Part shown: positions 19,578 to 55,637 of the stretch, piece by piece | Layout of the letters: each line of letters starts with the position of its first letter | How positions within the stretch are numbered: position 1 is the stretch's first letter | Assembly (NCBI GenBank): GCA_958296135.2 | Contig: CATQHZ020000001.1 | Coordinates: 832,001 to 896,000 of the forward strand | Direction: 5' to 3' | From: an uncultured Poribacteria bacterium | Lineage (GTDB): Bacteria > Poribacteria > WGA-4E > WGA-3G | Length of the DNA: 64,000 nucleotides | Program-made: the position numbers and the translations under genes | Notes under the pieces: model-generated | Database searches by the model: none | Told to the model about the DNA's origin: nothing | The model's input: the letters and a program-made list of their open reading frames with translations, nothing else

Positions 19578-21030
19578 GGGTTCGACCGATCGCGAGGGTT
19601 CCCCTCGGCGAGTAGAAGGGGCGTTTTGGGAGGTCGAGAGATCGCGAGGGACAGTGGACATCTCTGCAGCGAGGCTGCAGAGATGACAACGTTTCGGCGT
19701 AACGGCCCTCGCGCTACGGTTAAAAGGTGCCTGTTTCGCGCGACGATTAAAAGGCGCTTAGTCCGTAGGGCGCGGTCCTGTGCTGCGCCGTGCATCGGTC
19801 TATCAAGAGGGATTGCGAGGAACAAGTTTTCCCGCGCGCGAGGGTGAAAAGGGGCCTTTCTTATCGGTCGAGAGATCGCGGCGGACAGTGGACATCTCTG
19901 CAGCGAGGCGGCAGAGATGACAAAGTTTCGGCGTGACGGCCCTCGCGCTACGGTGAAAAGGGGCCTGTTTCGCGCGACGATTAAAAGGCCCCTTAGTCCG
20001 TAGGGCGAGGGCCTGTCCCTCGCCATGCTGCGGTCTAGCGAGAGGGATTGCGAGGAACAAGTTTTCCCGCGCGCGAGGGTGAAAGGGGGCCTTTCTTATC
20101 GGTCGAGAGATCGCGGCGGACAGTGGACATCTCTGCAGCGAGGCGGCAGAGATGACAAAGTTTCGGCGTAACGGCCGCCGCGCTACGGTGAAAAGGGGCC
20201 TGTTTCGCGCGACGATTAAAAGGCCCTTAGTCCGTAGGGCGCGGTCCTGTGCCGCGCCATGCTTCGGTGAAAAGGCCCCTTAGTCCGTAGGGCGCGGTCC
20301 TGTGCTGCGCCGTGCATCGGTCTATCAAGAGGGATTGCGAGGAACAAGTTTTCCCGCGCGCGAGGGTGAAAGGGGGCCTTTCTTATCGGTCGAGAGATCG
20401 CGGCGGACAGTGGACATCTCTGCAGCGAGGCGGCAGAGATGACAAAGTTTCGGCGTAACGGCCCTCGCGCTACGGTGAAAAGGTGCCTGTTTTGCGCGAC
20501 GATTAAAAGGCCCTTAGTCCGTAGGGCGCGGTCCTGTGCTGCGCCATGCGTCGATCTGCAGAGGAGATGGCGGTAGTCCGGGATTTCGCGCGTTTTTTGT
20601 GTAGGTCGGTAGATCGCGAGGGACAGGCCCTCGCGCTACGGTGAAAAGGGGCCTGTTTCGCGCGACGGTGAAGAGGCCCCTTAGTCCGTAGGGCGAGGGC
20701 CTGTCCCTCGCCATGCTGCGGTCTAGCGAGAGGAATCGCGAGGAACAGGTCCTTGCGCGAGGGTGAAAAGGTGCCTTTCTTGTCGGTCGAGAGATCGCGA
20801 GGGACAGTGGACATCTCTGCAGCGGGACTGCAGAGATGACAAAGTTTCGGCGTAACGGCCCTCGCGCTACGGTGAAAGGGGCCGTTTAGCGGCGAACAGG
20901 CCCTCGCGCTACGGTGAAAAGGCCCTTAGTCCGTAGGGCGCGGTCCTGTGCTGCGCCATGCTGCGGTGAAAAGGGGGCTTTCTTGTCGCGCGAACGATCG
21001 CGAGGGACAGGCCCTCGCGCTACGGTTAAA
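19578..21030. repeat. Mosaic REP/BIME-like array (~1.45 kb)
   Basis: Alternating cgcgagggacaggccctcgcgctacgg and ccgtagggcgcggtcctgtgctgcgcc units; higher-order unit recurs at 19651, 19885, 20120, 20407, 20804. Confidence 0.9.
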
Positions 21031-21086: not shown

Positions 21087-21115
21087 TTGACAAGCGCGCA
21101 AAAATGTGGTATAAT
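21087..21115 (+). promoter_or_regulatory. Sigma70 promoter of LTD locus 1
   Basis: TTGACA-17 bp-TATAAT with extended -10 TG. Confidence 0.85.
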
Positions 21116-21171
21116 ATCTATGTCATTAATTAGGGGCATGAAAGTTAACGCCACGAAAAAGGAGCACGAAT

Positions 21172-21336
21172 GTGAACACTCAATTCCGCGCGGATCACCC
21201 GATTCGCCTGCAGATATCTGTGAAAGCGACGCTGAAGCCACCGCGGCTGCGCGCCGTATCCCCGTTTGCGTTTGCGCGTCCCGTTGACGATGCCCTAGAC
21301 CGGATCACCCCCCCCCCATTACTTTACGCTCGTTAA
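21172..21336 (+). CDS. Leader ORF with C10 tract (54 aa)
   Basis: AAGGAG RBS, GTG start, MNTQFRADHPIR...LRAV...FAR...TPPPLLYAR*; homologous to 51727-51897; below ORF-track cutoff. Confidence 0.65.
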   Translation: MNTQFRADHPIRLQISVKATLKPPRLRAVSPFAFARPVDDALDRITPPPLLYAR

Positions 21337-21569
21337 CCATCGATATACTCGGCAGGAAGGGGCTCCGGGGGGATATCCTTGCTCACAATTCCAATATGAA
21401 AAACCGCGCGCGGTGCACGCGCGCGACTCACATTGCTCCGTGGCAGCCGCTCACGTTCGCGTGGACGCGGCTGCCACGGGGCTCTTCGCGTTGCACCGTC
21501 GGCTGCAACGTCGAGGGCCACCAGCGTTGTTCCGGGGAAATTTCTGTCCCCACTAGGGATATAAAGGGG

Positions 21570-21609
21570 CAGGATAGCCGTGGGCATTCGCCCACGGTTA
21601 CCCTGTTTT
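21570..21609 (+). terminator. Terminator-like hairpin inside leader region
   Basis: CAGGATAGCCGTGGGC-attc-GCCCACGGTTACCCTG followed by TTTT. Confidence 0.5.
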
Positions 21610-21695
21610 CTCCGAGACTGCGACATCTGCTGCGCTCCACTGCAATCGGTGCGGCGGCAACGGTATTATCGGGACCCGAGGTCCCTCCTACTCTT

Positions 21696-21861
21696 CATGT
21701 TTCCGCCGCAATCGGTGTGGTGGAAACTCTAAGGCAAGTCGAGACCGGGAGGTCTCTCCTACATGTTTCCGCCGCAATCGGTGTGGTGGAAACTCTAAGG
21801 CAAGTCGAGACCGGGAGGTCTCTCCTACATGTTTCCGCCGCAATCGGTGGGGCGGAAACTC
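21696..21861. repeat. 66-bp tandem repeat, ~2.5 copies, containing a REP
   Basis: Units start at 21696, 21762, 21828; the two full units contain gagaccgggaggtctctcctac. Confidence 0.9.
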
Positions 21862-21908
21862 CCTATTCATTTTATTTCATTTCATTTTTCTAAGAGGAGA
21901 ATTTTCCT

Positions 21909-24900
21909 ATGAAAAGGCATTCCATTTTTTTCTTATGTTTGCTGCTCGTCGTCGGGATAGTTTCGATGCTCGGCATACCGATAGACGCACAAGCCGTAGA
22001 ATCAGTAGCTGGCATTAAAATCTACGTGAACCCAGAAACGGTGACCAGCTTCGCCGATGCGGGTTATCCAACCGGGGTGCAAACCGGGGTGTCACGTGTA
22101 CGGGGTCACCCGTGGGACAGGGGGCAGGATGGCTACGTGAAACTCGGTACGAGCCACGGCACGGTGAGCGGCGGTACCGAGATTACTGACTCCAACGACC
22201 ACGATAGCGCAAGCCCCGTCACGGCGGGTGTGGGGGATATCATCGCGATTGTGCTTCATCTACAGAATGTAAGCGTCTGGTACGCAACGTTAGACTTCCC
22301 TGGTTTTGATGCGGCCGGGTTGGCAGCACCAACGGATCTGACAAATAACGCAGACGGGATTAAACAGTCACCGGCTCCTAACGTCTTCTTGGAAGGCCCC
22401 GCTTGGTTCAATCCAGTACTTGCAAATGCTACCGCTGTCTACTATTATAAGGTGAAGGTTGGTGACGTTGATACCGACGGTGGGTGGCTTGATTCTTCAG
22501 CGACGGCTACCCCTTTTTCTAATAACCGATGGCCAGTGACAGGTCAAGCGGCGATCGCGTTCGACACTAGAAATGTCAAGTATCCCATAGTGGATGGCAG
22601 AGTCCCGCAAGTCACCGCTAACCCGTTCCGCGTGAGCAGTACGCCTCCCTCATCCCAAACTGGGGAGTCGCTCTATGCATGGAGCTACCAGAATTGTTAC
22701 CTCCCCTGGAGGGACATGGGCGCAGGTTATGCAGCCTTGGTGAGTTGCTATACCGTCGGACATCCCGTTGAATTGTCGTATCTGCTCGGGGATATCGAGA
22801 TCACGACGGGCCATCGGAGCGACCGGCAGACCTACGGTTTCTATAAAGCCGGCGATATCATCACAATCGAGATGGCCTTTACCGAACCGATACGAGTGCA
22901 GGATAGAAGCATCACATTGGAGTTCAAATGGGATGGAGATGTGCGTTACGCGCCGCTTGCTGACACTCAAGAAGGGACGGCTGCCGATCCCACGCCGACA
23001 GTGCTCACCTTTGCGTATGAAGTGCAGCCGGGCGACCGGACTTTTGGGGGCGGTCTGTTTATCAGGAAGCCCTTTGAGGGGAATGAGTCGGCGATCACAG
23101 ATGTTGCTGGGGACGCCTTTACTTATGAGGGCTCGGGTTATCCCGGGTTTTACCTCGCTGGTTGGGAGCAATCAACGGATGCTGTTCAGCCGACAGTGTG
23201 GATAGACAGGTCTGCAGGTGAAACGGGCACGGCGACGGCGGATTTTGATGTGGTATTCAGTTTCATTAATATCACCCCTTGGACCTATAATCGCGGCAAG
23301 GCGAACGAATCGACGCAGACAGAATATTTCCCGGATGAAGTGCCGGGGTTTTCAAGCGGTGACATCACTATCACGGATGCGTCTGGTGCCTCGTTGCAAA
23401 GTTATCTGGGCGAGGTGGAATTTCTCGGGTTAGCACATTTCAAAAGCGGGGACTACATCCGCTTTGCCATTCCGGCTCTAGCGGCCTATCGTGTCACCGT
23501 TGCGCCGCCGCTCGGTTTCGTCGGCGATGTCACTATCCAATTGCCGGCGGGTGCCACGCAGGACATTGCGGGCAACGGGAATCTGGCATCGCATACGTTA
23601 GTGGTGCCGGTGGACAACCCGTTGCGCGTGGTTGAAACGCCGGAGATTGTCAAGCCCGCAGCCGGTGTCCATGCCGCCGGGGATAAGATTGAAGTGTCGG
23701 TGACGTATGCCCGGGAGAATCTGCGGTATGAAGGGACGAACCCGCCGTATCTGGTGGTGTATGTGGGTGAACAGGTGTTAGCGAATGCGCGGCATGCTGT
23801 TTGGACAGCGGCGGCAGACACGAATTCGACGAAAGTGACGTTTGCGTATACGGTGGCAGCCACAGACCCGGTGGCAGAGACAGTGCGTGTTCCCTCTGTC
23901 AATATACTGGTGCCGTCAGGGACGACGTTGCTGTCTGGGCAACAGCGGCAGATAGGCACAGCGGCGCCAGCGGCGGCTTCTGGCACTGCGCCGCCCTCGG
24001 TGCCGGCAGCAGACCCGGCTCCGTTGGAAGATACGTCTGGGCGGGAGGTTTCGCCTGTCGTTCAGGAGACCCTGGTGTTGCCGGTTGTGCCGTTTTTCCT
24101 TGAGGAGACTTCGCCGAAGGCTGCTGCGTCTGCTGTGCCACGTTCGCCCATTGTTTTCAACGAGTTGGGCAATGGCAGCGGCGATGCAAACGACTGGCTG
24201 GAGCTCCGCAATGTCACGGGTTCGGAGGTATCCCTGAAAGACTATGAGCTTTCGGTTGTGGCCGATGGGGAAAAGGAAGATACATCGCTCGTCGTTTTCG
24301 CGGATGTGAGCGTGCCTGCGAATGGGCTCTTACTCATCACGAACAGTGCGCCGGATAAAACGCCGCTGGCAGGTGGTGAGCAGAAAGGGTTGTCGCATGC
24401 GTTTTTAGTGGATGATAAGCTATCCTTGCCGGATGATGGGCAGTTCCTGTTGATTCTGCGGAACGCGAAGGAGAAACTCGGTATGAACGCGGCATTTGTC
24501 GATGTCGCCGGTGGCGGTGGCAGTGACACGGATGCGTTCGTTCGCGAGCAGACGGGTGACTATGATACCTACGTGTGGCCGTTGCAAGTGCGTCAGGCAC
24601 CGGGTGGCGATACGGCATCGGCTCTCGGCTCTGGTAAGGTGTGGCAGCGCGCGAAGGCAGATATTGTGGGTTACCACAAAGATGCCTGGGCGGAAGCCGC
24701 CTTCACCGGTATCGGCTATGACAGGACTGTCTCGAAGTCTGCTGCGACGGGTGGCACGCCGGGGTATCCGAATGGTGCCGTGAAAACGGCAGCAGCTACG
24801 CCGAAGGGTAGTATCACCATCAGCGAAGTGATGTTCGATTCGGGTGGCGGCACACTGCCGCAATGGATAGAGCTCTACAACGCGTCGAAAACGGAGGCAC

Positions 24901-25802
24901 TGAATCTGAATCGGTGGAAACTAGAGTTCCAGAATGTGGATTCGGAAGATTTGGTAGGGCGGCCGATTGTGGCGTTGACGTTGCAGGAGAAGGTGATTCA
25001 GCCGAATCAGACGCTGCTCATCGTCGCGGGGCCTGCGCGTGCGTCATCAAGCACGGTGTTTCCTGCGGAGCGGGTCTACAACCTGTTGGATTTGCATCAG
25101 AGGAACCTGCGCATTAAGACTGCGCGGGATACGTTCCTGAGCGCGGAAGGGTTCTACCTGAAGCTTACCGATAGCAACGGTAACCTCGTAGACGAGGTTG
25201 GCAACACTGATGGTAATCGTCGGACGAAAGATGCGCCAGCGTGGGCGTTACCGGTGAGTGTTGAGGAAGGCGTTCGGAGTTCGCTGATTCGGCGTTACGA
25301 CAACGGCGTTGCACTGAAAGGGAAGGAGCGTGCGAGTTGGGCTCTGGCATCGAACCTCAAGCGACTCGCCGTGGAAGCCCTCCACTATGGGCATGCCGAG
25401 GACATCGGCACGCCGGGGTATCGCGCTGGCGGTGCGTTGCCGGTGGAGTTGTCAAGTTTCTCGGTGATGCAGAATGAAGCCGGCGCGGTTGTCTTAACAT
25501 GGACGACGGAGTCCGAAGTTGACAATGCTGGCTTCAACTTGCGCCGTAGTGAGAAACGCGACAGCGGTTTCACGCTGCTGAATGCTACGTTAATTGCGGG
25601 TGCTGGCACGACAGGTGAGCGTCAGACGTATACGTTTACAGATACGTCTGCGAAGCCGGGTGTTGAGTACTATTATCAGATCGAGGAAGTCGCGTTTGAT
25701 GGGCGGCCGGCGACGTTGGCGATGCGGATGTTGCGGGGGCCAGTCTCTGCGGCGAATCGGATGCTGACGACGTTCGGTGCTGTGAAGCAGCAGGCGAAAT
25801 AG
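21909..25802 (+). CDS. Large secreted lamin-tail-domain/Ig-like surface protein (1297 aa)
   Basis: Signal peptide; Ig-like units (DIAGNGN); two LTDs (IVFNE..DWLELRN; ITISEVMF..QWIELYN; GTPG); LPVELSSF domain; TTFGAVK tail; GAGGAG RBS. Confidence 0.88.
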   Translation: MKRHSIFFLCLLLVVGIVSMLGIPIDAQAVESVAGIKIYVNPETVTSFADAGYPTGVQTGVSRVRGHPWDRGQDGYVKLGTSHGTVSGGTEITDSNDHDSASPVTAGVGDIIAIVLHLQNVSVWYATLDFPGFDAAGLAAPTDLTNNADGIKQSPAPNVFLEGPAWFNPVLANATAVYYYKVKVGDVDTDGGWLDSSATATPFSNNRWPVTGQAAIAFDTRNVKYPIVDGRVPQVTANPFRVSSTPPSSQTGESLYAWSYQNCYLPWRDMGAGYAALVSCYTVGHPVELSYLLGDIEITTGHRSDRQTYGFYKAGDIITIEMAFTEPIRVQDRSITLEFKWDGDVRYAPLADTQEGTAADPTPTVLTFAYEVQPGDRTFGGGLFIRKPFEGNESAITDVAGDAFTYEGSGYPGFYLAGWEQSTDAVQPTVWIDRSAGETGTATADFDVVFSFINITPWTYNRGKANESTQTEYFPDEVPGFSSGDITITDASGASLQSYLGEVEFLGLAHFKSGDYIRFAIPALAAYRVTVAPPLGFVGDVTIQLPAGATQDIAGNGNLASHTLVVPVDNPLRVVETPEIVKPAAGVHAAGDKIEVSVTYARENLRYEGTNPPYLVVYVGEQVLANARHAVWTAAADTNSTKVTFAYTVAATDPVAETVRVPSVNILVPSGTTLLSGQQRQIGTAAPAAASGTAPPSVPAADPAPLEDTSGREVSPVVQETLVLPVVPFFLEETSPKAAASAVPRSPIVFNELGNGSGDANDWLELRNVTGSEVSLKDYELSVVADGEKEDTSLVVFADVSVPANGLLLITNSAPDKTPLAGGEQKGLSHAFLVDDKLSLPDDGQFLLILRNAKEKLGMNAAFVDVAGGGGSDTDAFVREQTGDYDTYVWPLQVRQAPGGDTASALGSGKVWQRAKADIVGYHKDAWAEAAFTGIGYDRTVSKSAATGGTPGYPNGAVKTAAATPKGSITISEVMFDSGGGTLPQWIELYNASKTEALNLNRWKLEFQNVDSEDLVGRPIVALTLQEKVIQPNQTLLIVAGPARASSSTVFPAERVYNLLDLHQRNLRIKTARDTFLSAEGFYLKLTDSNGNLVDEVGNTDGNRRTKDAPAWALPVSVEEGVRSSLIRRYDNGVALKGKERASWALASNLKRLAVEALHYGHAEDIGTPGYRAGGALPVELSSFSVMQNEAGAVVLTWTTESEVDNAGFNLRRSEKRDSGFTLLNATLIAGAGTTGERQTYTFTDTSAKPGVEYYYQIEEVAFDGRPATLAMRMLRGPVSAANRMLTTFGAVKQQAK

Positions 25803-39036: not shown

Positions 39037-40541
39037 GAGAATTGATGATTCAATGGACGCAGTGCCTGATAAATCTGCGCGTATGCCGCCAATTTCTCAT
39101 CGTAATGCGCGGCGACATTTTCACGCGGATAATAGACTTCACGCGGCGTGACGAGCTGCGCAACCGCTGCTTCAACGGACTCATATTTGCCGATGGCGGT
39201 GCCGGCTAAAATTGCTGTGCCGAGGCAGACACCTTCGGAGATGTCTAGTGCTACCACCTTTTTGCCGAACATGTCGGCCTTGAGTTGGAGCCATTTTTCG
39301 GATTTCGCGCCGCCGCCGATGGCGCGCACCTCGTTAATTATAACGCCGGCCTCTTGTAGCATGGCGAGATTCTGCTTTATCTCATAACTGATGCCTTCCA
39401 GGATGGCCTTGACGAGTTCGCCTCTTGTCGTGGAGAGCGTCAATCCGACAATCGCGCCTTTTGACTCCAAATCTAAATAAGGTGTCCCGGAGCCAGTAAA
39501 GTGCGGTAGCAACATCGCCGTGGCAGGTTCATCCGGCATTTCGGCGAGGAGCATGTCGTAGATGTCGCGGCTTTCTGCTGCTGCTTGCGCGACTTCTGCC
39601 TGCGCGAAGGTATCGCGATACCAGCGGAGGACAACGCCGCCGCTGGAGACAAATCCAAGCGTGACGTAAAGCCCATCGACGACGTGTGGGTAGCACGCGA
39701 AATTTCCGTCTATCATAGATTGATTGATGACAGGTTCGGTGAACGCGGGTGCGATGCACTCCACGGTGCCGGTTGCATCCATCACTTCGCCGCTGCGGAT
39801 GATGCCAGCACCCAGTGCGCCGCAGGGCTGGTCATGCCCTCCTGTGACTCCCACGACACCTCTCGGCAGGCCAAGTTCATCGGCGATTTTTGGGCTTACC
39901 TCCCCGATGATAGTGCCGGAGGGTGCGGTATTCGGCAAGAGGTTTGCATCCACATCCCCCAAACCGAGCATTTCGTCCGACCAGGTTTTGTTGATAATAT
40001 CGAAAGCCATCGTGCGCGCGGCGAGCGAATAATCCACCACGGGCGGAATGCCGAGTTGGAAATAGACGAAATCTTCAAAGCCAAGGAACTTCCACACTTG
40101 CCGGTAAATATCGGGTTGATTTCGTTGCATCCAGATAAGTTTTGGCAGCGTGTGAATGTCGCTCGGCGGCATCCCAGTGATGCGCATGACTTCCAGCGGA
40201 CTTAGCTGTCCCTTGAGTTCGTTGCAGATACCGGCGGTTCTATCATCGAACGTCGTGATGGCGTTCGCCAAGATAGCGCCGTTCGCCGAGATGGGTGTGA
40301 CTGCTTCGCCTTGCGATGCGACGCTGATAGCCTCAATCGGTTCGGCGTGTGTTTGCGCTGCAACCTGCTGAATACAGGCGGCGATGTTCTCCCAGACGAC
40401 ATGCGCATCTAATTCCGACCGGCCGGGTTGGGGATGGACGAGGGGGTACTCGCCGTATGCTTGCGCGAGAATTTCGCCATCTTCACGAAACGCGATGACT
40501 TTGCATCCAGTTGTGCCGACATCAATACCCAAAAGACTCAT
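39033..40541 (-). CDS. FGGY carbohydrate kinase (xylulokinase-like)
   Basis: LGIDVGTTGCK, GGHDQ, GT.E, AILEG, GGGAKS..W.Q..AD; 4-bp overlap with ROK gene. Confidence 0.92.
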   Translation of the reverse strand: MSLLGIDVGTTGCKVIAFREDGEILAQAYGEYPLVHPQPGRSELDAHVVWENIAACIQQVAAQTHAEPIEAISVASQGEAVTPISANGAILANAITTFDDRTAGICNELKGQLSPLEVMRITGMPPSDIHTLPKLIWMQRNQPDIYRQVWKFLGFEDFVYFQLGIPPVVDYSLAARTMAFDIINKTWSDEMLGLGDVDANLLPNTAPSGTIIGEVSPKIADELGLPRGVVGVTGGHDQPCGALGAGIIRSGEVMDATGTVECIAPAFTEPVINQSMIDGNFACYPHVVDGLYVTLGFVSSGGVVLRWYRDTFAQAEVAQAAAESRDIYDMLLAEMPDEPATAMLLPHFTGSGTPYLDLESKGAIVGLTLSTTRGELVKAILEGISYEIKQNLAMLQEAGVIINEVRAIGGGAKSEKWLQLKADMFGKKVVALDISEGVCLGTAILAGTAIGKYESVEAAVAQLVTPREVYYPRENVAAHYDEKLAAYAQIYQALRPLNHQFS

Positions 40542-50851: not shown

Positions 50852-51595
50852 GAGAGCCCTCCTGGGGGACAGGTTTTCCGTCGCGCGACGGTGAAAGGGG
50901 CCTCTTTCGCGCGAGGGTGAAAATGCGTCTTAGTCCGTAGGGCGCGGTCCTGTGCTGCGCCATGCGTCGATCAATCGAGGTGAATGGCGAGGAGCAGGTC
51001 TTCGCGCGAGGGTGAAAAGGGCCCCTTAGTCCGTAGGGCGCGGTCCTGTGCCGCGCCATGCTGCGGTCTGCGGAGGAAATGCGGTAGTCCGTGGGGTTTT
51101 GGCGGTTTTTGTGTGGGTCGAGAGATCGCGAGGGACAGTGGACATCTCTGCAGCGAGGCGGCAGAGATGACAAAGTTTCGGCGTAACGGCCCTCGCGCTA
51201 CGGTAGAAGGAGCGGTTTTGGGGGTCGGTGAAAAGGGCCCCTTAGCCCGTAGGGCGCGGTCCTGTGCCGCGCCGTGCGTCGATCTGCAGAGAAGAGTAGC
51301 GCAGTCCTGGGGCTTCTGTCGTTTTTTGTGTGGTTCGAGGGATCGCGAGGGACAGGCCCTCGCGCTACGGTACTAAGGGGCCGTTTTGTGTGGATCGAGA
51401 GATCGCGAGGGACAGGCCCTCGCGCTACGGTGAAAAGGGGCCGATGGTGGAAGGGGCTGTTTTGAGGGATCAGGGGATCGCGAGGGGAACCCTCGGCGAT
51501 TCGTGATCGCCGGGCCCTCGCGCTACGGAAGAAGGGATGCTACGGTGAAAAGGGGCCGGTGTATCGAACATCGAGACCAGGAGGTCTCTCCTACC
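50849..51595. repeat. Mosaic REP array (~0.75 kb)
   Basis: Same hairpin families as other arrays. Confidence 0.9.
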
Positions 51596-51632
51596 GGAAA
51601 ATGGGAGAATTAAGAAGATTGCAATTTTAATG

Positions 51633-51661
51633 TTGACAATTGCACAAAAATGTGGTATACT
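51633..51661 (+). promoter_or_regulatory. Sigma70 promoter of LTD locus 2
   Basis: TTGACA-17-TATACT; spacer ends CAAAAATGTGG as in locus 1. Confidence 0.85.
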
Positions 51662-51726
51662 ATGCTATGCTGTAACTGATTTGGGCGAGATGTGAAATGT
51701 CGCCCCTTACGTCTAGGAGAACGAAC

Positions 51727-51897
51727 GTGAAAACTCAACAGGCTTTCATTACGATGGATAACCCTATCCGTCCGAATAGCACCGGTGCATTGACGCTGCA
51801 GCTGCCGTGGCTGCGCGCGGTGTTCACGTTCGCGCGCGGTGTTGTGACACTGCGTTCTCCTGAAACACTCGTACCCCCCCCCCTTTACATATATTAA
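51727..51897 (+). CDS. Leader ORF with C10 tract (56 aa)
   Basis: AGGAG RBS, GTG start, MKTQ...DNPIR...LRAV.TFAR...VPPPLYIY*; homologous to 21172-21336. Confidence 0.65.
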   Translation: MKTQQAFITMDNPIRPNSTGALTLQLPWLRAVFTFARGVVTLRSPETLVPPPLYIY

Positions 51898-51976
51898 CCA
51901 TTGCGAGCTCGGTAGGAAGGCGATCCGGGGGACACCCCTGCCCACTTCCGCTGCAGAATTCCCTTTTAGAGCCCAG

Positions 51977-51999
51977 GCGCGCTTTCCAAGCGCGCTTTT
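51977..51999 (+). terminator. Terminator-like hairpin inside leader region
   Basis: GCGCGCTT-tcc-AAGCGCGC followed by TTTTcgtgttgtt. Confidence 0.45.
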
Positions 52000-52148
52000 C
52001 GTGTTGTTGCGTAGGTACTTCTTGCGCTCGGGGAAGGCATCGGGACGAGGGGATTTCTCTCAGGTGGGCAGGCATCGCAATCGGCTAGCACGCACGGCAC
52101 TGCCGCAACCGGTGCGGTGCCGCGCCATAAATTGAATGAGGAATTTAA

Positions 52149-55100
52149 ATGATGATGAAAACTTTTTTGAACGCTTACGTTTTTCTGTTCCTTGTTGGGG
52201 TCGTCTTCATGGCTGCCCCGATAGCCGCGCAAGCGCAAGAAGATACCACGCCTCCGAGACCAATCACTTATGTTCCGGGTGAACAATATCCGCTCTCGTT
52301 CGTGAATGCAGCCGGTGCGACGTTGCCCTATGCACCGCATACCGGGCGTTCTCGCACTGCACGTGTGGTCAGAGACTGCAATGGGTATCCGTTTGATACG
52401 ACGTTCGGAGCTGCTTTCGCTGTGTTGTGTGATGCAGTGGATACGGAAACGTTCTACTCCACTCCTGAGCCGTGGGGGGTTGCCTATTACGGTGTCGGCG
52501 ATACCATCTATCTTCGTTGGGAATTTGACGAAAATGTGACGGTGACCGGCACGCCGAAATTGGAATTCTGGTTTAAGTCACATTCTCTCGCCGTCGGCGG
52601 TGACGGCCACCCGGGCTCGCGCTGCGCAACTCTCAAAGCCGGTGAGGGAAATGGCTCGAGCAACACACTTACCTTTGAATACACGGTGGAGCCGGGTGAC
52701 TATAACCCGGGTCTCACAATTGTGTCAGCGTTTTGTAGGCCCCATGACTTCAGCATAACAAATAATCATGACTTCAGCATAACAGATAATGTTGGCAACG
52801 AATTTGATCCAATCTCTCTAGGGGATTTTGGGTGGTTTGTAGCAAAACCGACGGCTAGAAGAGTTGATGGGATAAGCCCGTCGGTGAGAATCACCGGCGT
52901 GATATCGGCAGACTCTGAGACGCACGATGGGGATTACTTGAAACAGGAAGTCTTTGTTGAGACGCTTGAGCATAGTGTGTTACAGGCGGCCTCTCCCGTG
53001 CGCGTTTCTGGCGTGAAGACAGGCCCCTTTACGGTGGAAATCAGATTTTACGAAAACTTGGAAATACTCCCTTATCCAACACATGTTCTTGAGAGGACTG
53101 ATGTCGCAGAGGAGCCCGTGGGCTTTGAGGGAGATGACATCCAGGTGACTGATGCGAGTGGCAACGTGTTGGCTTGGCATGTCTCACCACCGACGTTTAT
53201 CGGGCTGGACCATCGTGCTACATTGCGCGGGGCCCATGGTCACGAGGGCCGTGCTGGGAATAAGGCCTATGTGGGCGAAGCAATCTGGAAGCCCTCGTTC
53301 GCGGTTTACAAAGTTACCATTACACCGACTGATTTTGATGGCGGTGAGGTGAGCATCCAAGTGCCTGCAGGTGCCACGCAGGACATCGCCGGTAACCCCA
53401 ATCACGTATCCAATACGTTAACCGTGTCTGTAGGGGACTTGAGCCCCCCGGTCGTGCAAAGCCTCCGGTTCGTTGAAACCGCAAGCGAGATATACACTGT
53501 CGGCGATGAGATTGCGGTTGAGGTGACGTTCGACGAAGACGGTGTCCGTCACGATGGCGGTGCGGCCAATCCGCCGTATCTGACGCTCTATTTAGGGGAG
53601 AGGACGCTGGCGAATGAACGGCATGCGACGTGGCAGCCGAACTCGGAACGCACGGGTTCAACGGTAGTGACGTTCGTGTATCCTATCCAATTCGGAGATG
53701 CGGCTGAGTCGGTGAGTGTGAAAGCGACGGGGATTTCGGTTCCTGTGGGGGTGACGGTGAGCGATGCGGATGGGAACCAGATTGTTGGGGCATCGTCTCG
53801 GGCTGAGCCGCCTGGGACTGCGCCGGATGAGGAGACACCTGCGTCGGATATGCAGTTGCGCTTTGAGGATGCCACCTTGCGTGAGATTCGTGAAACGGAA
53901 GAGAAAAAACCTGTCCACACCATTTTCCCGGTGCTAGAGACGGCGGATCCGAAGTCTCCCGCCTCCGATGTGCCGCGCAGCCCGTTGGTGTTCAACGAGT
54001 TGGGCAATGGCAGTGGTGCTGCAAATGACTGGCTGGAATTGCGGAATGTCACGGGTTCGGCTGTCTCCTTGAAAGACTGGGAGCTCAGCGTCGTGCAAGA
54101 TGACAAAAAGGAAGATACGTCGCTCATTGTGTTTCCGGATGCCAGCGTGCCGGCGAACGGCCTGCTGTTGGTAACAAACAGCGCGCCAGAGAAAACGCCG
54201 CTGGCGGGTGGTGAGAAGAGAGGGTTGTCGCATGCGTTTTTGGTGGATGCGGGGCTCTCGCTGCCGGATGATGGGAAGTTCCTGTTGATTCTCCGTAATG
54301 CGAAGGATAAGCTTGGCATGAACGCGGCGTTCGTGGATGTCGCCGGTGGCGGTGGCAGTGACACGGATGCGTTCGTCCGCGAGCAGACAGGCGACTACGA
54401 TACGCACGTCTGGCCGTTGCAAGTGCTACAAGCTCCCGGTGGTGACACCGAAGACGCGCTAAGTTCGGGCAAAGTGTGGCAGCGCGCGAAAGCGGATATC
54501 ATTGGGTATCATAAAGATGCCTGGGCGGAAGCCGCCTTCACCGGTATCGGCTATGATAGGAATGTTTCCAAGTCGGCGGCGACAGCAGGCACGCCGGGGT
54601 ATCCGAATGGTGCCGTGAAAACGGCAGCAGCTACGCCGAAGGGTGCTATCACTATCAGCGAAGTCATGTTTGATTCGGGTGGTGGCACGCTGCCGCAGTG
54701 GATAGAACTCTATAATGCGTCCAAAACGGAGGCCCTGAATCTGAATCGGTGGCAGCTGGAGTTCCAGAACGTCGATTCGGAAGACTTGGTAGGGCGGCCG
54801 ATTGTGGCGTTAACGTTGCAGGAGAAGGTGATTCAGCCGAATCAGACGCTGCTGCTCGTCGCGGGTGCTGCGCGTGCCTCGTCGGCGGATGTTTTCCCGG
54901 CCGATAGGGTTTACAATCTGTTGGCTTTGCATCAGCGGAACCTGCGCATCAAGACTGCGCGGGATACGTTCCTGAGTGCCGAGGGCTTCTATCTGAAGTT
55001 GACAGACGGCAATGGTAACCTCGTAGACGAGGTTGGCAACACCGATGGCAATCGTCGGACGAAGGATGCGCCGGCGTGGGCGTTACCGGTGAGTGGCGAG

Positions 55101-55637
55101 GCAGGCGTTCGGAGCTCGCTGATTCGGCGTTACAAGGATAACGTGGCGCGAGATGGGAAGGAGAAGGCCAGCTGGGTCTTGTCTGCGAACATCCGGCAGG
55201 TTGCCACGGGCGAACTCCATTATGGGCATGCGGAGGACATCGGCACGCCGGGGTATCGGAAAGGCGGTGCGTTGCCGGTGGAATTGTCAAGTTTCACCGT
55301 GGCGCGCACGGAGGCCGGTGCGGTTGTCGTGACCTGGACGACTGAGTCTGAGGTGGATAACGCCGGGTTTAACCTGCGTCGGAGTGAGCGGCGCGATAGT
55401 GGGTTCACGCTTTTGAATGCTGCGTTGATTGCGGGTGCTGGCACGACGGGTGAGCGTCAGACGTATACGTATATGGATACGTCCGCGAAGCCGGGTGTTG
55501 CGTATTACTATCAGATTGAGGAGGTCGCGTTTGATGGCCGGCCGGCGACGTTAGTGACGCGTCGGTTGCGGGGCCCTGTTTCACCTGCGCATCGGCAGTT
55601 GACGATGTTTGGTGCTGTGAAGCAGCAGGCGAAATAA
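52149..55637 (+). CDS. Large secreted lamin-tail-domain/Ig-like surface protein (1162 aa), paralog of 21909-25802
   Basis: Signal peptide (AQA), Ig-like units, two LTDs, LPVELSSF domain, TMFGAVKQQAK tail. Confidence 0.88.
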   Translation: MMMKTFLNAYVFLFLVGVVFMAAPIAAQAQEDTTPPRPITYVPGEQYPLSFVNAAGATLPYAPHTGRSRTARVVRDCNGYPFDTTFGAAFAVLCDAVDTETFYSTPEPWGVAYYGVGDTIYLRWEFDENVTVTGTPKLEFWFKSHSLAVGGDGHPGSRCATLKAGEGNGSSNTLTFEYTVEPGDYNPGLTIVSAFCRPHDFSITNNHDFSITDNVGNEFDPISLGDFGWFVAKPTARRVDGISPSVRITGVISADSETHDGDYLKQEVFVETLEHSVLQAASPVRVSGVKTGPFTVEIRFYENLEILPYPTHVLERTDVAEEPVGFEGDDIQVTDASGNVLAWHVSPPTFIGLDHRATLRGAHGHEGRAGNKAYVGEAIWKPSFAVYKVTITPTDFDGGEVSIQVPAGATQDIAGNPNHVSNTLTVSVGDLSPPVVQSLRFVETASEIYTVGDEIAVEVTFDEDGVRHDGGAANPPYLTLYLGERTLANERHATWQPNSERTGSTVVTFVYPIQFGDAAESVSVKATGISVPVGVTVSDADGNQIVGASSRAEPPGTAPDEETPASDMQLRFEDATLREIRETEEKKPVHTIFPVLETADPKSPASDVPRSPLVFNELGNGSGAANDWLELRNVTGSAVSLKDWELSVVQDDKKEDTSLIVFPDASVPANGLLLVTNSAPEKTPLAGGEKRGLSHAFLVDAGLSLPDDGKFLLILRNAKDKLGMNAAFVDVAGGGGSDTDAFVREQTGDYDTHVWPLQVLQAPGGDTEDALSSGKVWQRAKADIIGYHKDAWAEAAFTGIGYDRNVSKSAATAGTPGYPNGAVKTAAATPKGAITISEVMFDSGGGTLPQWIELYNASKTEALNLNRWQLEFQNVDSEDLVGRPIVALTLQEKVIQPNQTLLLVAGAARASSADVFPADRVYNLLALHQRNLRIKTARDTFLSAEGFYLKLTDGNGNLVDEVGNTDGNRRTKDAPAWALPVSGEAGVRSSLIRRYKDNVARDGKEKASWVLSANIRQVATGELHYGHAEDIGTPGYRKGGALPVELSSFTVARTEAGAVVVTWTTESEVDNAGFNLRRSERRDSGFTLLNAALIAGAGTTGERQTYTYMDTSAKPGVAYYYQIEEVAFDGRPATLVTRRLRGPVSPAHRQLTMFGAVKQQAK

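Follow-up and report, generated by a model that had tools for sequence, protein, structure and literature searches.

Phase-variable contingency loci, with their recurrent gene classes and the term 'phasevarion', are known mainly from cultivable animal pathogens and commensals. In Campylobacter jejuni, Neisseria and Haemophilus, such loci (mod methylases among them) carry G or C runs of 8-10 nt at the 5' ends of surface genes and inside restriction-modification genes, and homopolymer contingency loci in general combine frame-dependent ON and OFF states, an early stop in the OFF frames and many loci per genome. Here we describe a comparable arrangement in a 64,000-nucleotide stretch of DNA (hereafter the window; GenBank assembly GCA_958296135.2, contig CATQHZ020000001.1, positions 832,001 to 896,000 of the forward strand) from an uncultured Poribacteria bacterium, where a leader with a run of ten cytosines precedes a gene for a Lamin Tail Domain (LTD) protein (locus 2, 51633-55637). 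We think it probable that this leader is a heritable poly-C phase-variation (contingency) switch of a secreted LTD multigene family, working through translation of a leader open reading frame (ORF) across an attenuator. ON and OFF states are set by tract length in C. jejuni (bioRxiv 10.1101/2022.11.09.515450), and repeats are treated for N. meningitidis (PMC5084427).

Three features set the Poribacteria loci apart from these classic examples: their host belongs to an uncultivated, sponge-associated phylum; 12 of the 14 tracts of the LTD family lie in a separate upstream leader ORF that is followed by a terminator-like hairpin; and the tract has an invariant GTTAA at a fixed distance, with switching in vivo being what the arrangement would predict. 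The leader ORF brings a second class of systems into the comparison. The trp and pyrBI operons are leader-peptide transcription attenuators, and Salmonella mgtP has, ahead of an operon related to virulence or the cell surface, a short leader ORF whose successive proline codons sense Pro-tRNA or elongation factor EF-P. Locus 2 resembles leader-peptide and upstream-ORF attenuators in its apparently translated short 5' ORF, in the putative terminator before the gene and in the decisive part that we propose for ribosome travel. Where trp and pyrBI respond to a metabolite level or to tRNA charging, the input here would be tract length, heritably altered in the DNA and setting the reading frame; and unlike in mgtP, three consecutive prolines are kept by just 10 of the 23 leader peptides, the run itself consisting purely of C and varying in length.

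Attenuation that depends on upstream ORFs (and Rho) has been reviewed, and that review (PMC12360218) describes the Escherichia coli fim and Clostridioides difficile flgB switches, in which, as we propose here, a stochastic DNA switch in the leader gates termination before genes. Those switches are recombinase-flipped invertible segments that act with Rho, whereas the Poribacteria element would be a homopolymer acting via the leader frame, with a terminator that looks intrinsic. A further parallel is Haemophilus influenzae hmw1A, where the 5' untranslated region (UTR) of an adhesin gene contains a transcribed repeat that may base-pair with G-rich sequence further downstream; that repeat is an untranslated heptamer array with RNase III processing (PMC12721329), whereas the Poribacteria tract would be translated and its C:G pairing has no covariation support. 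Full-text searches turned up no account of such loci from Poribacteria or from sponge symbionts, nor did we find, in the limited collection searched, an attenuator gated by a homopolymer within a leader ORF.

Anatomy and conservation of the leader module

The anatomy of locus 2 can be read directly from the DNA, as can the conservation, frame logic and fused paralogues described below. On the forward strand, like every feature of the locus, a sigma-70-type promoter with an extended -10 element (51633-51661; TTGACA, 17 nt, TG-n-TATACT; 11 of 12 consensus matches) is followed by a Shine-Dalgarno (SD) sequence, AGGAG, at 51715-51719, which stands 7 nt ahead of the GTG (51727) of a leader ORF of 56 codons plus TAA (51727-51897). 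The C10 homopolymer (51874-51883), our proposed slippage site, holds the last leader codons, and as assembled the leader is closed by the TAA at 51895-51897 within ATTAAC (51893-51898), the local form of the family's (G)TTAAC; we call the frame that this TAA closes frame T. After the leader stop come, in order, TTAACC, CTCGGTAGGAAGG (51908-51920) and GGGGG (51927-51931), the latter two forming a conserved G-rich block (51908-51931). A terminator-like hairpin with a U-rich tail, CTTTTCGTGTTGTTG, occupies 51975-52007 (stem GGCGCGC/GCGCGC; the hairpin proper spans 51975-51997 and is followed by T-rich TTCGTGTTGT) and is the proposed attenuator. LTD gene 2 (52149-55637; 1162 aa) has a ribosome-binding site (RBS), GAGGA, at 52138-52142, a signal-peptide-like N-terminus and an LTD at residues 828-964 (PF00932, E 4.2e-21).

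An earlier note on this DNA, made from its letters alone, had named a promoter, RBS, 56-aa leader and C10 tract, together with a hairpin and T run, and we find them all. Its two shifted frames are there too. With one C fewer, a long alternative frame (51884-52135, reading ...LGRKAIRG...) is entered that crosses the hairpin and ends at TGA 52133-52135, just ahead of the GAGGA and 13 nt short of the ATG at 52149; with one C more, the stop falls at 52086-52088. Only two runs in the window reach nine or more C (51874-51883 and 21308-21317); the 4 overlapping C9 matches that they give compare with 0.44 expected, and 1 of 100 shuffles reached 4.

The other run belongs to locus 1, also on the forward strand, with a leader unit at 21087-21336 (promoter 21087-21115, 12 of 12 consensus matches; GTG 21172; C10 21308-21317; TAA 21334-21336) before LTD gene 1 (21909-25802; 1297 aa; PF00932, E 1.7e-21). 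The two leaders align with 67% mean column identity, and the block after the leader stop, which the earlier note had thought conserved, aligns with its counterpart at locus 1. Their homology is real and extends well past this pair: the module recurs 12 times in the genome that holds the window (G000), at least 11 times in a second genome of the genus (G002) and at least once in a third (G001). The 12 split modules of G000, namely ten locus-1-like copies, locus 2 and its 95% identical twin, each stand before an LTD-domain ORF of 1162-1452 aa. Counting two fused forms, the genome has 14 close LTD paralogues, all with a C tract and 70-80% identical across their C-terminal 780-925 residues; alignment among the downstream proteins is lost over their first ~240-430 residues, and the UTRs of the copies are mostly 20-65% identical. 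The idea that the architecture persists while its surroundings diverge is thus borne out by 24 copies from three genomes, and the conservation counts that follow are based on these 23-24 LTD-type copies. The homology of the leader pair had been seen correctly; its scale had been missed, as the pair is part of a genome-wide poly-C system that includes restriction-modification genes. Among 41 genomes searched with a DNA query, 7 had any match, and whole-module matches were confined to the genus; genomes of other genera matched over the promoter only. A metagenome scan with a pattern of tract, TTAAY and TCGGYAGGAAGG gave 0 matches.

Leader translation, tract length and exit frame

Stop codons single out the leader frame: it has none in 1063 codons (23 copies), as against 68 and 52 in the other two forward frames. 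All 23 copies retain an SD-like GGA(G/T/A) with a GTG or ATG after it, and some leaders carry internal frame changes yet remain open. Divergence by codon position is nearly flat both in the ten locus-1-type copies (0.066, 0.10 and 0.119) and in G002 (0.35, 0.34 and 0.45). Judged in silico by these counts, the leader ORF appears to be translated, as a leader-peptide attenuator's short 5' ORF would be, and its peptide sequence is barely constrained; what selection seems to preserve is the openness of the frame, by which ribosomes would be brought into the C tract. An antisense gene under the leader was considered and ruled out by the stops in the reverse frames (32, 27 and 32 per 1063 codons).

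The prolines that the tract encodes could themselves matter. A translation-speed or RNA-structure attenuator, in which polyproline stalling (via EF-P or Pro-tRNA) or C:G pairing gates the terminator and length differences are incidental, would fit the fact that every frame of the tract gives at least two prolines and that a terminator-like hairpin lies downstream. The 10 leader peptides with three prolines are, however, joined by 13 with two, which leaves no conserved run of three or more, and the prolines are encoded by CCC alone, which argues for selection on the nucleotide run. The tracts inside restriction-modification genes would also go unexplained.

Tract length varies across the family (C7 in 1 copy, C8 in 9, C9 in 9 and C10 in 4), and a mutable homopolymer of about 7 nt or more in the 5' coding or leader region, as contingency loci have, is therefore present both at locus 2 (C10) and throughout its relatives (C7-C10). 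The TTAA after the tract is invariant (23 of 23), and frame T ends at the invariant TAA 11-16 nt past the tract. Frame T+1 is closed ahead of the hairpin tail in 14 of 23 copies; in 13 of them the closing codon is either a TAA located 11 nt ahead of the T stop or a TGA 7 nt beyond it, and copy F has its T+1 stop 127 nt past the T stop. As assembled, leaders exit in frame T in 10 copies, in T+1 in 8 and in T+2 in 5, a scatter expected of unsynchronised switches. Tract length thus sets an intact against a truncated frame, much as in contingency loci, and its effect would pass from there to the separate LTD gene.

This scatter also bears on recoding at the RNA level, in which the C run would serve as a programmed ribosomal frameshift site (CCC_C) or a transcriptional slippage site and give a fixed mix of short and long products, with no heritable DNA switching. 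Such an account has the tract itself in its favour: 8-10 nt approximates the length of the RNA:DNA hybrid, and CCC-C is a known +1-prone site. A programmed frameshift would, however, hold the two ORFs in one fixed relation, and the relation of leader to long frame varies over all three frames in the proportions just given. As for mutability, tract length is unequal in 8 of 10 close paralogue pairs, and three of the unequal pairs (I/J, M/N and L022/L041) have identical immediate flanks and single-C differences.

The clearest view of what the frames do comes from the fused paralogues N and M, in which leader, tract and GTTAAC are joined to the protein with no second start. In N (C9), an ATG opens a leader-like N-terminus, and its frame continues through the tract and CCG TTA ACC to a segment resembling a signal peptide and then to the LTD protein; in M (C8), whose flanks are identical to those of N, the ATG frame dies at the TAA. 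That N is in frame and M out of frame also speaks against recoding. A more distant paralogue, with C10 five codons past its ATG, is off by one base from the frame of its 1998-aa ORF, and a same-genus record has a fused copy that is likewise out of frame. These paralogues indicate that the third frame is the productive one and that single-C differences would turn the gene on or off. The earlier proposal of a choice between a short and a long frame, made by the length of the tract, is accordingly supported, and it is strengthened by fused forms in which the long frame is the protein frame.

Two leader pairs on contig C1 of G000 are mosaic around the tract: I and J share 82% identity upstream of it and 98% downstream, and L033 and L037 share 60% and 90%. 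Such identity profiles suggest recombination among paralogues with breakpoints near the tract.

The third frame, the hairpin and the G-rich block

Beyond the leader stop, the third frame is poor in stops: its 3194 UTR codons include 33, where the other two forward frames have 79 and 68 and the reverse ones 91-106. It is the frame with the fewest stops in about 12 of 17 lineages (rough binomial P 0.002); the paralogues in these counts are not independent, and locus 2 and its twin were counted with the non-homologous frame. These two have one base fewer between the TAA and the conserved block, and their homologous long frame is therefore T+1, ending at 52135. The third frame comes to 20 nt or less from the gene's ATG, or passes it, in 12 of 24 copies, and its TGA overlaps that ATG (ATGA) in three copies. 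We also considered whether the long frame encodes a real protein and rejected this: a conserved stretch, QRCSGE..GIKGQDNRG, is read in one frame in 12 copies, in a second in 5 and in the last in 2, which marks it as a conserved nucleotide element and no protein.

A pattern search placed a stable hairpin that ends directly at a tail, GGCU.UUY..GUUGCA, in 26 of 30 leaders (the 23 LTD-type leaders and 7 of a second family, VNQR, described below), and two of the four that missed the tail (copies I and L022) nearly match it by eye. The hairpin of locus 2 at 51975-51997 corresponds to these. Stem sequences differ between leader groups while the tail is homologous, and in silico, then, a putative intrinsic terminator lies between leader ORF and gene as attenuators require. 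Frame T never gets as far as the hairpin tail, whereas the long frame passes it before its first stop in each of the 21 LTD copies whose tail was recognised.

We propose the following course of events. A promoter of consensus strength would drive the leader RNA, and ribosomes would translate the ~55-codon leader ORF into the C8-C10 tract, whose length would be altered by slipped-strand mispairing at replication and would fix the frame in which they leave. Exit in frame T would lead to the invariant TAA, and the assembled C10 of locus 2 is predicted to be OFF; the second frame would often be closed within ~25 nt; and the third would stay open across the hairpin, at locus 2 for ~250 nt to the TGA, with C9 or C12 predicted to be ON. 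Translation through the hairpin would prevent premature termination and bring ribosomes to the gene start, combining anti-attenuation with coupling. Tract switching in vivo, the identity of the ON frame and the termination or coupling step are what we infer in this scheme. The contingency reading draws together the kinds of gene involved, the logic of the frames, the evidence of the fused paralogues and the scatter of frame states, and we regard its rivals as less likely.

Several observations weigh against a switch of this kind. The length differences between paralogues may in part be homopolymer assembly errors, and among four runs from one sample and study a single 481-nt contig spans the locus 2 tract, with C10 unchanged; the run data are assembled contigs, the other three runs have no contig over 51629-51957, and none of the runs listed is on record as RNA. 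When the open frame was compared with dinucleotide shuffles copy by copy, the signal was weak (P 0.015-0.5). In 12 of 24 copies, among them the twin of locus 2, the long frame ends 36-330 nt before it would reach the gene; many hairpins have modest U tails (CUCUUCGCGUU), and the LTD genes have a good RBS of their own that would permit independent translation. The model also leaves unaccounted for both the strictness of GTTAA, where any stop would serve, and the G-rich block. A metagenome scan with a pattern of tract, TTAAY and TCGGYAGGAAGG gave 0 matches.

The broken long frames and the separate RBS suit another explanation, that the split leader is an evolutionary relic: a stranded former N-terminal part of the LTD protein, cut off by insertions of hairpins and repeats, with the gene now running on its own RBS. 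Fused forms exist, as this history would have it, and the UTRs do contain repeat-like hairpins and tandem repeats. A homopolymer, start and open frame without selection would be expected to decay, however, and SD, start, open leader, C7-C10 and TTAA are kept in 23 of 23 copies in spite of the divergence of the UTRs. Given this retention, and since a relic would account neither for the depletion of stops in the third frame nor for a second leader family built to the same plan, we consider this history very unlikely and continue to favour the contingency switch.

The G-rich block was the basis of a further proposal in the earlier note, that the downstream G-runs pair with the C tract as an RNA switch. 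RNAalifold on 23 sequences does pair four C's of the tract with four G's of the run, each pair being present in 21-23 of the 23; as both sides are invariant, the covariance analysis that had been suggested for the block yields no covariation signal. The same alignment gave only this C:G stem and one short hairpin, with no alternative antiterminator pairing. Local fold energies were no better than those of shuffled sequences (z +1.0 at locus 2, and -0.17, -0.57 and -1.54 at three others), the minimum-energy fold of locus 2 omits the C-tract/G-run pairing, and neither the fused paralogues nor the VNQR leaders have the G run. The RNA switch is thus not established. For the attenuator based on stalling or structure, the consistency of the predicted pairs is a point in favour, as is the precedent of a repeat with a G-rich arm in the H. 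influenzae hmw1A 5' UTR (PMC12721329); set against the invariance of the pairs, the fold energies, the absent G runs and the proline codons discussed above, these leave it, in our estimation, very unlikely.

Poly-C tracts and GTTAA beyond the LTD family

Contig C1 of G000 has 83 tracts of C8 or longer, whereas its composition would predict ~217. A GTTAA follows 3-20 nt past the tract in 35 of them, and in 25 of these 35 it stands at 13-14 nt; the same motif follows only 3 of 616 C6-7 tracts, 5 of 203 A runs of at least 8 and 2 of 203 T runs of at least 8. The combination C8-N6-18-GTTAA is likewise far more frequent than its reversed control in G000 (44 vs 0), G009 (79 vs 4), G056 (43 vs 2), G054 (25 vs 1) and G023 (20 vs 0). 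It is enriched in several genera of the family, and most of the order's other searched genomes have it rarely or not at all; 27 of 61 genomes had any match, and overlapping matches inflate the counts.

The genes concerned fall into classes familiar from contingency loci, that is, surface or secreted proteins and restriction-modification systems. C8-C10 tracts occur at the 5' ends of, or at frame breaks in, genes for Eco57I/MmeI-type, Type ISP, several N6_N4 methylase and DUF1156 proteins (on contig C1 of G000, for example, at 39277, 1327189, 2822657, 3905222, 4205321, 4722613 and 4723634), which makes these restriction-modification genes candidate phase-variable methylases. The second leader family (VNQR...) repeats the plan of the LTD leaders with an SD, a ~50-codon ORF, C8-10, GTTAAGTAA and a hairpin plus tail; here GTTAAGTAA closes two frames, and the third is open towards the gene. 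Its members precede Laminin_G_3, WD40/Por_Secre_tail and patatin genes (contig C1 of G000: 520591, 784414, 4898201 and 4986417; also 2197644, 3766609 and 4424607), and other tract loci precede cohesin/dockerin, ABC-2 and methylase-Mrr genes.

Placement of the tracts returns us to RNA-level recoding. A GTTAA at a constant 13-14 nt, as 25 of 35 loci have it against controls near zero, would suit a recoding signal in which GTTAA acts as stimulator or roadblock. In G009, which belongs to another genus, however, two nearly identical 29-nt poly-C/GTTAAG modules lie in different methylase genes in opposite orientations (L099:300-335 and L100:300-335), one of them breaking a mod-like gene beside a res-like helicase, and the occurrence of the module in both orientations relative to its host gene argues against a signal read in RNA. 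Together with the variable frame relation, this makes recoding an unlikely explanation of the tracts, and we retain the heritable switch. The twin modules of G009 suggest a portable DNA cassette.

A plain stop codon does not, on this spacing, explain GTTAA at a fixed distance. One tentative extension, which we think doubtful, is that TA-C8-10, 13-14 nt and GTTAA together form a portable, sequence-specific Poribacteria switch cassette, with GTTAA read by a machine of fixed footprint (such as a DNA-binding protein or a paused polymerase) and slippage assisted or regulated instead of purely stochastic. Sites that would belong to it occur in several genera and in either orientation, both in the leaders of secreted proteins and within restriction-modification genes. 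Were it correct, the cassette would represent a novel type of device for programmed hypermutation or recoding, and for the switch itself the conserved GTTAA spacing would hint at an unknown component.

If the poly-C switch is real, a sponge symbiont would vary a 14-member LTD family, lectin-like and beta-propeller secreted proteins and restriction-modification genes by poly-C slippage, which would point to strong, fluctuating selection by host cells and phages. The split form would unite phase variation with leader-peptide attenuation, the repeat lying in a translated leader that gates an attenuator, and frameshifts at C8-C10 runs in these genomes should then not be annotated as errors or pseudogenes.

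The Rfam search that had been recommended for the leaders was run and matched no family, with 0 matches at gathering thresholds in the window and best E-values of 0.66 and 0.22 for the two leaders, far under gathering scores and at chance level. Pfam had no family for the leader peptides or for a 165-aa ORF at 21396-21893, and the LTD proteins matched no NCBIfam family and had no relative of solved structure by sequence.

The promoter type of the two leaders also precedes tRNA genes elsewhere in the genome and is the organism's generic strong type. Its long consensus in G000 (TTGACA, ..AAAATGTGG, TATAAT) occurs at 51633-51661, at 21087-21115 and in many other places, and it helps to annotate transcription starts in this group. 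Upstream of both promoters lie clusters of a palindromic repeat (…GGCCCTCGCGCTACGGTGAAAAGG…; window 51340-51560 and 20900-21030), where contigs from the runs heap up with very high summed depth and alternative joints, as expected of a genome-wide repeat. A palindrome at window 51570-51600 is related to a ~67-nt tandem unit of the locus 1 UTR, which has about three copies of it at window 21690-21870 (…GTTTCCGCCGCAATCGGTG.GGTGGAAAC…GAGACCGGGAGGTCTC…); paralogues carry fewer of these units (UTRs of 575, 504 and 438 nt). Elsewhere in G000, the 144-kb contig C2 has 36.8% G+C against 54% for C1 and may be foreign or a different replicon, and long C runs around 7759-7804 of contig C4 look like an assembly artefact.

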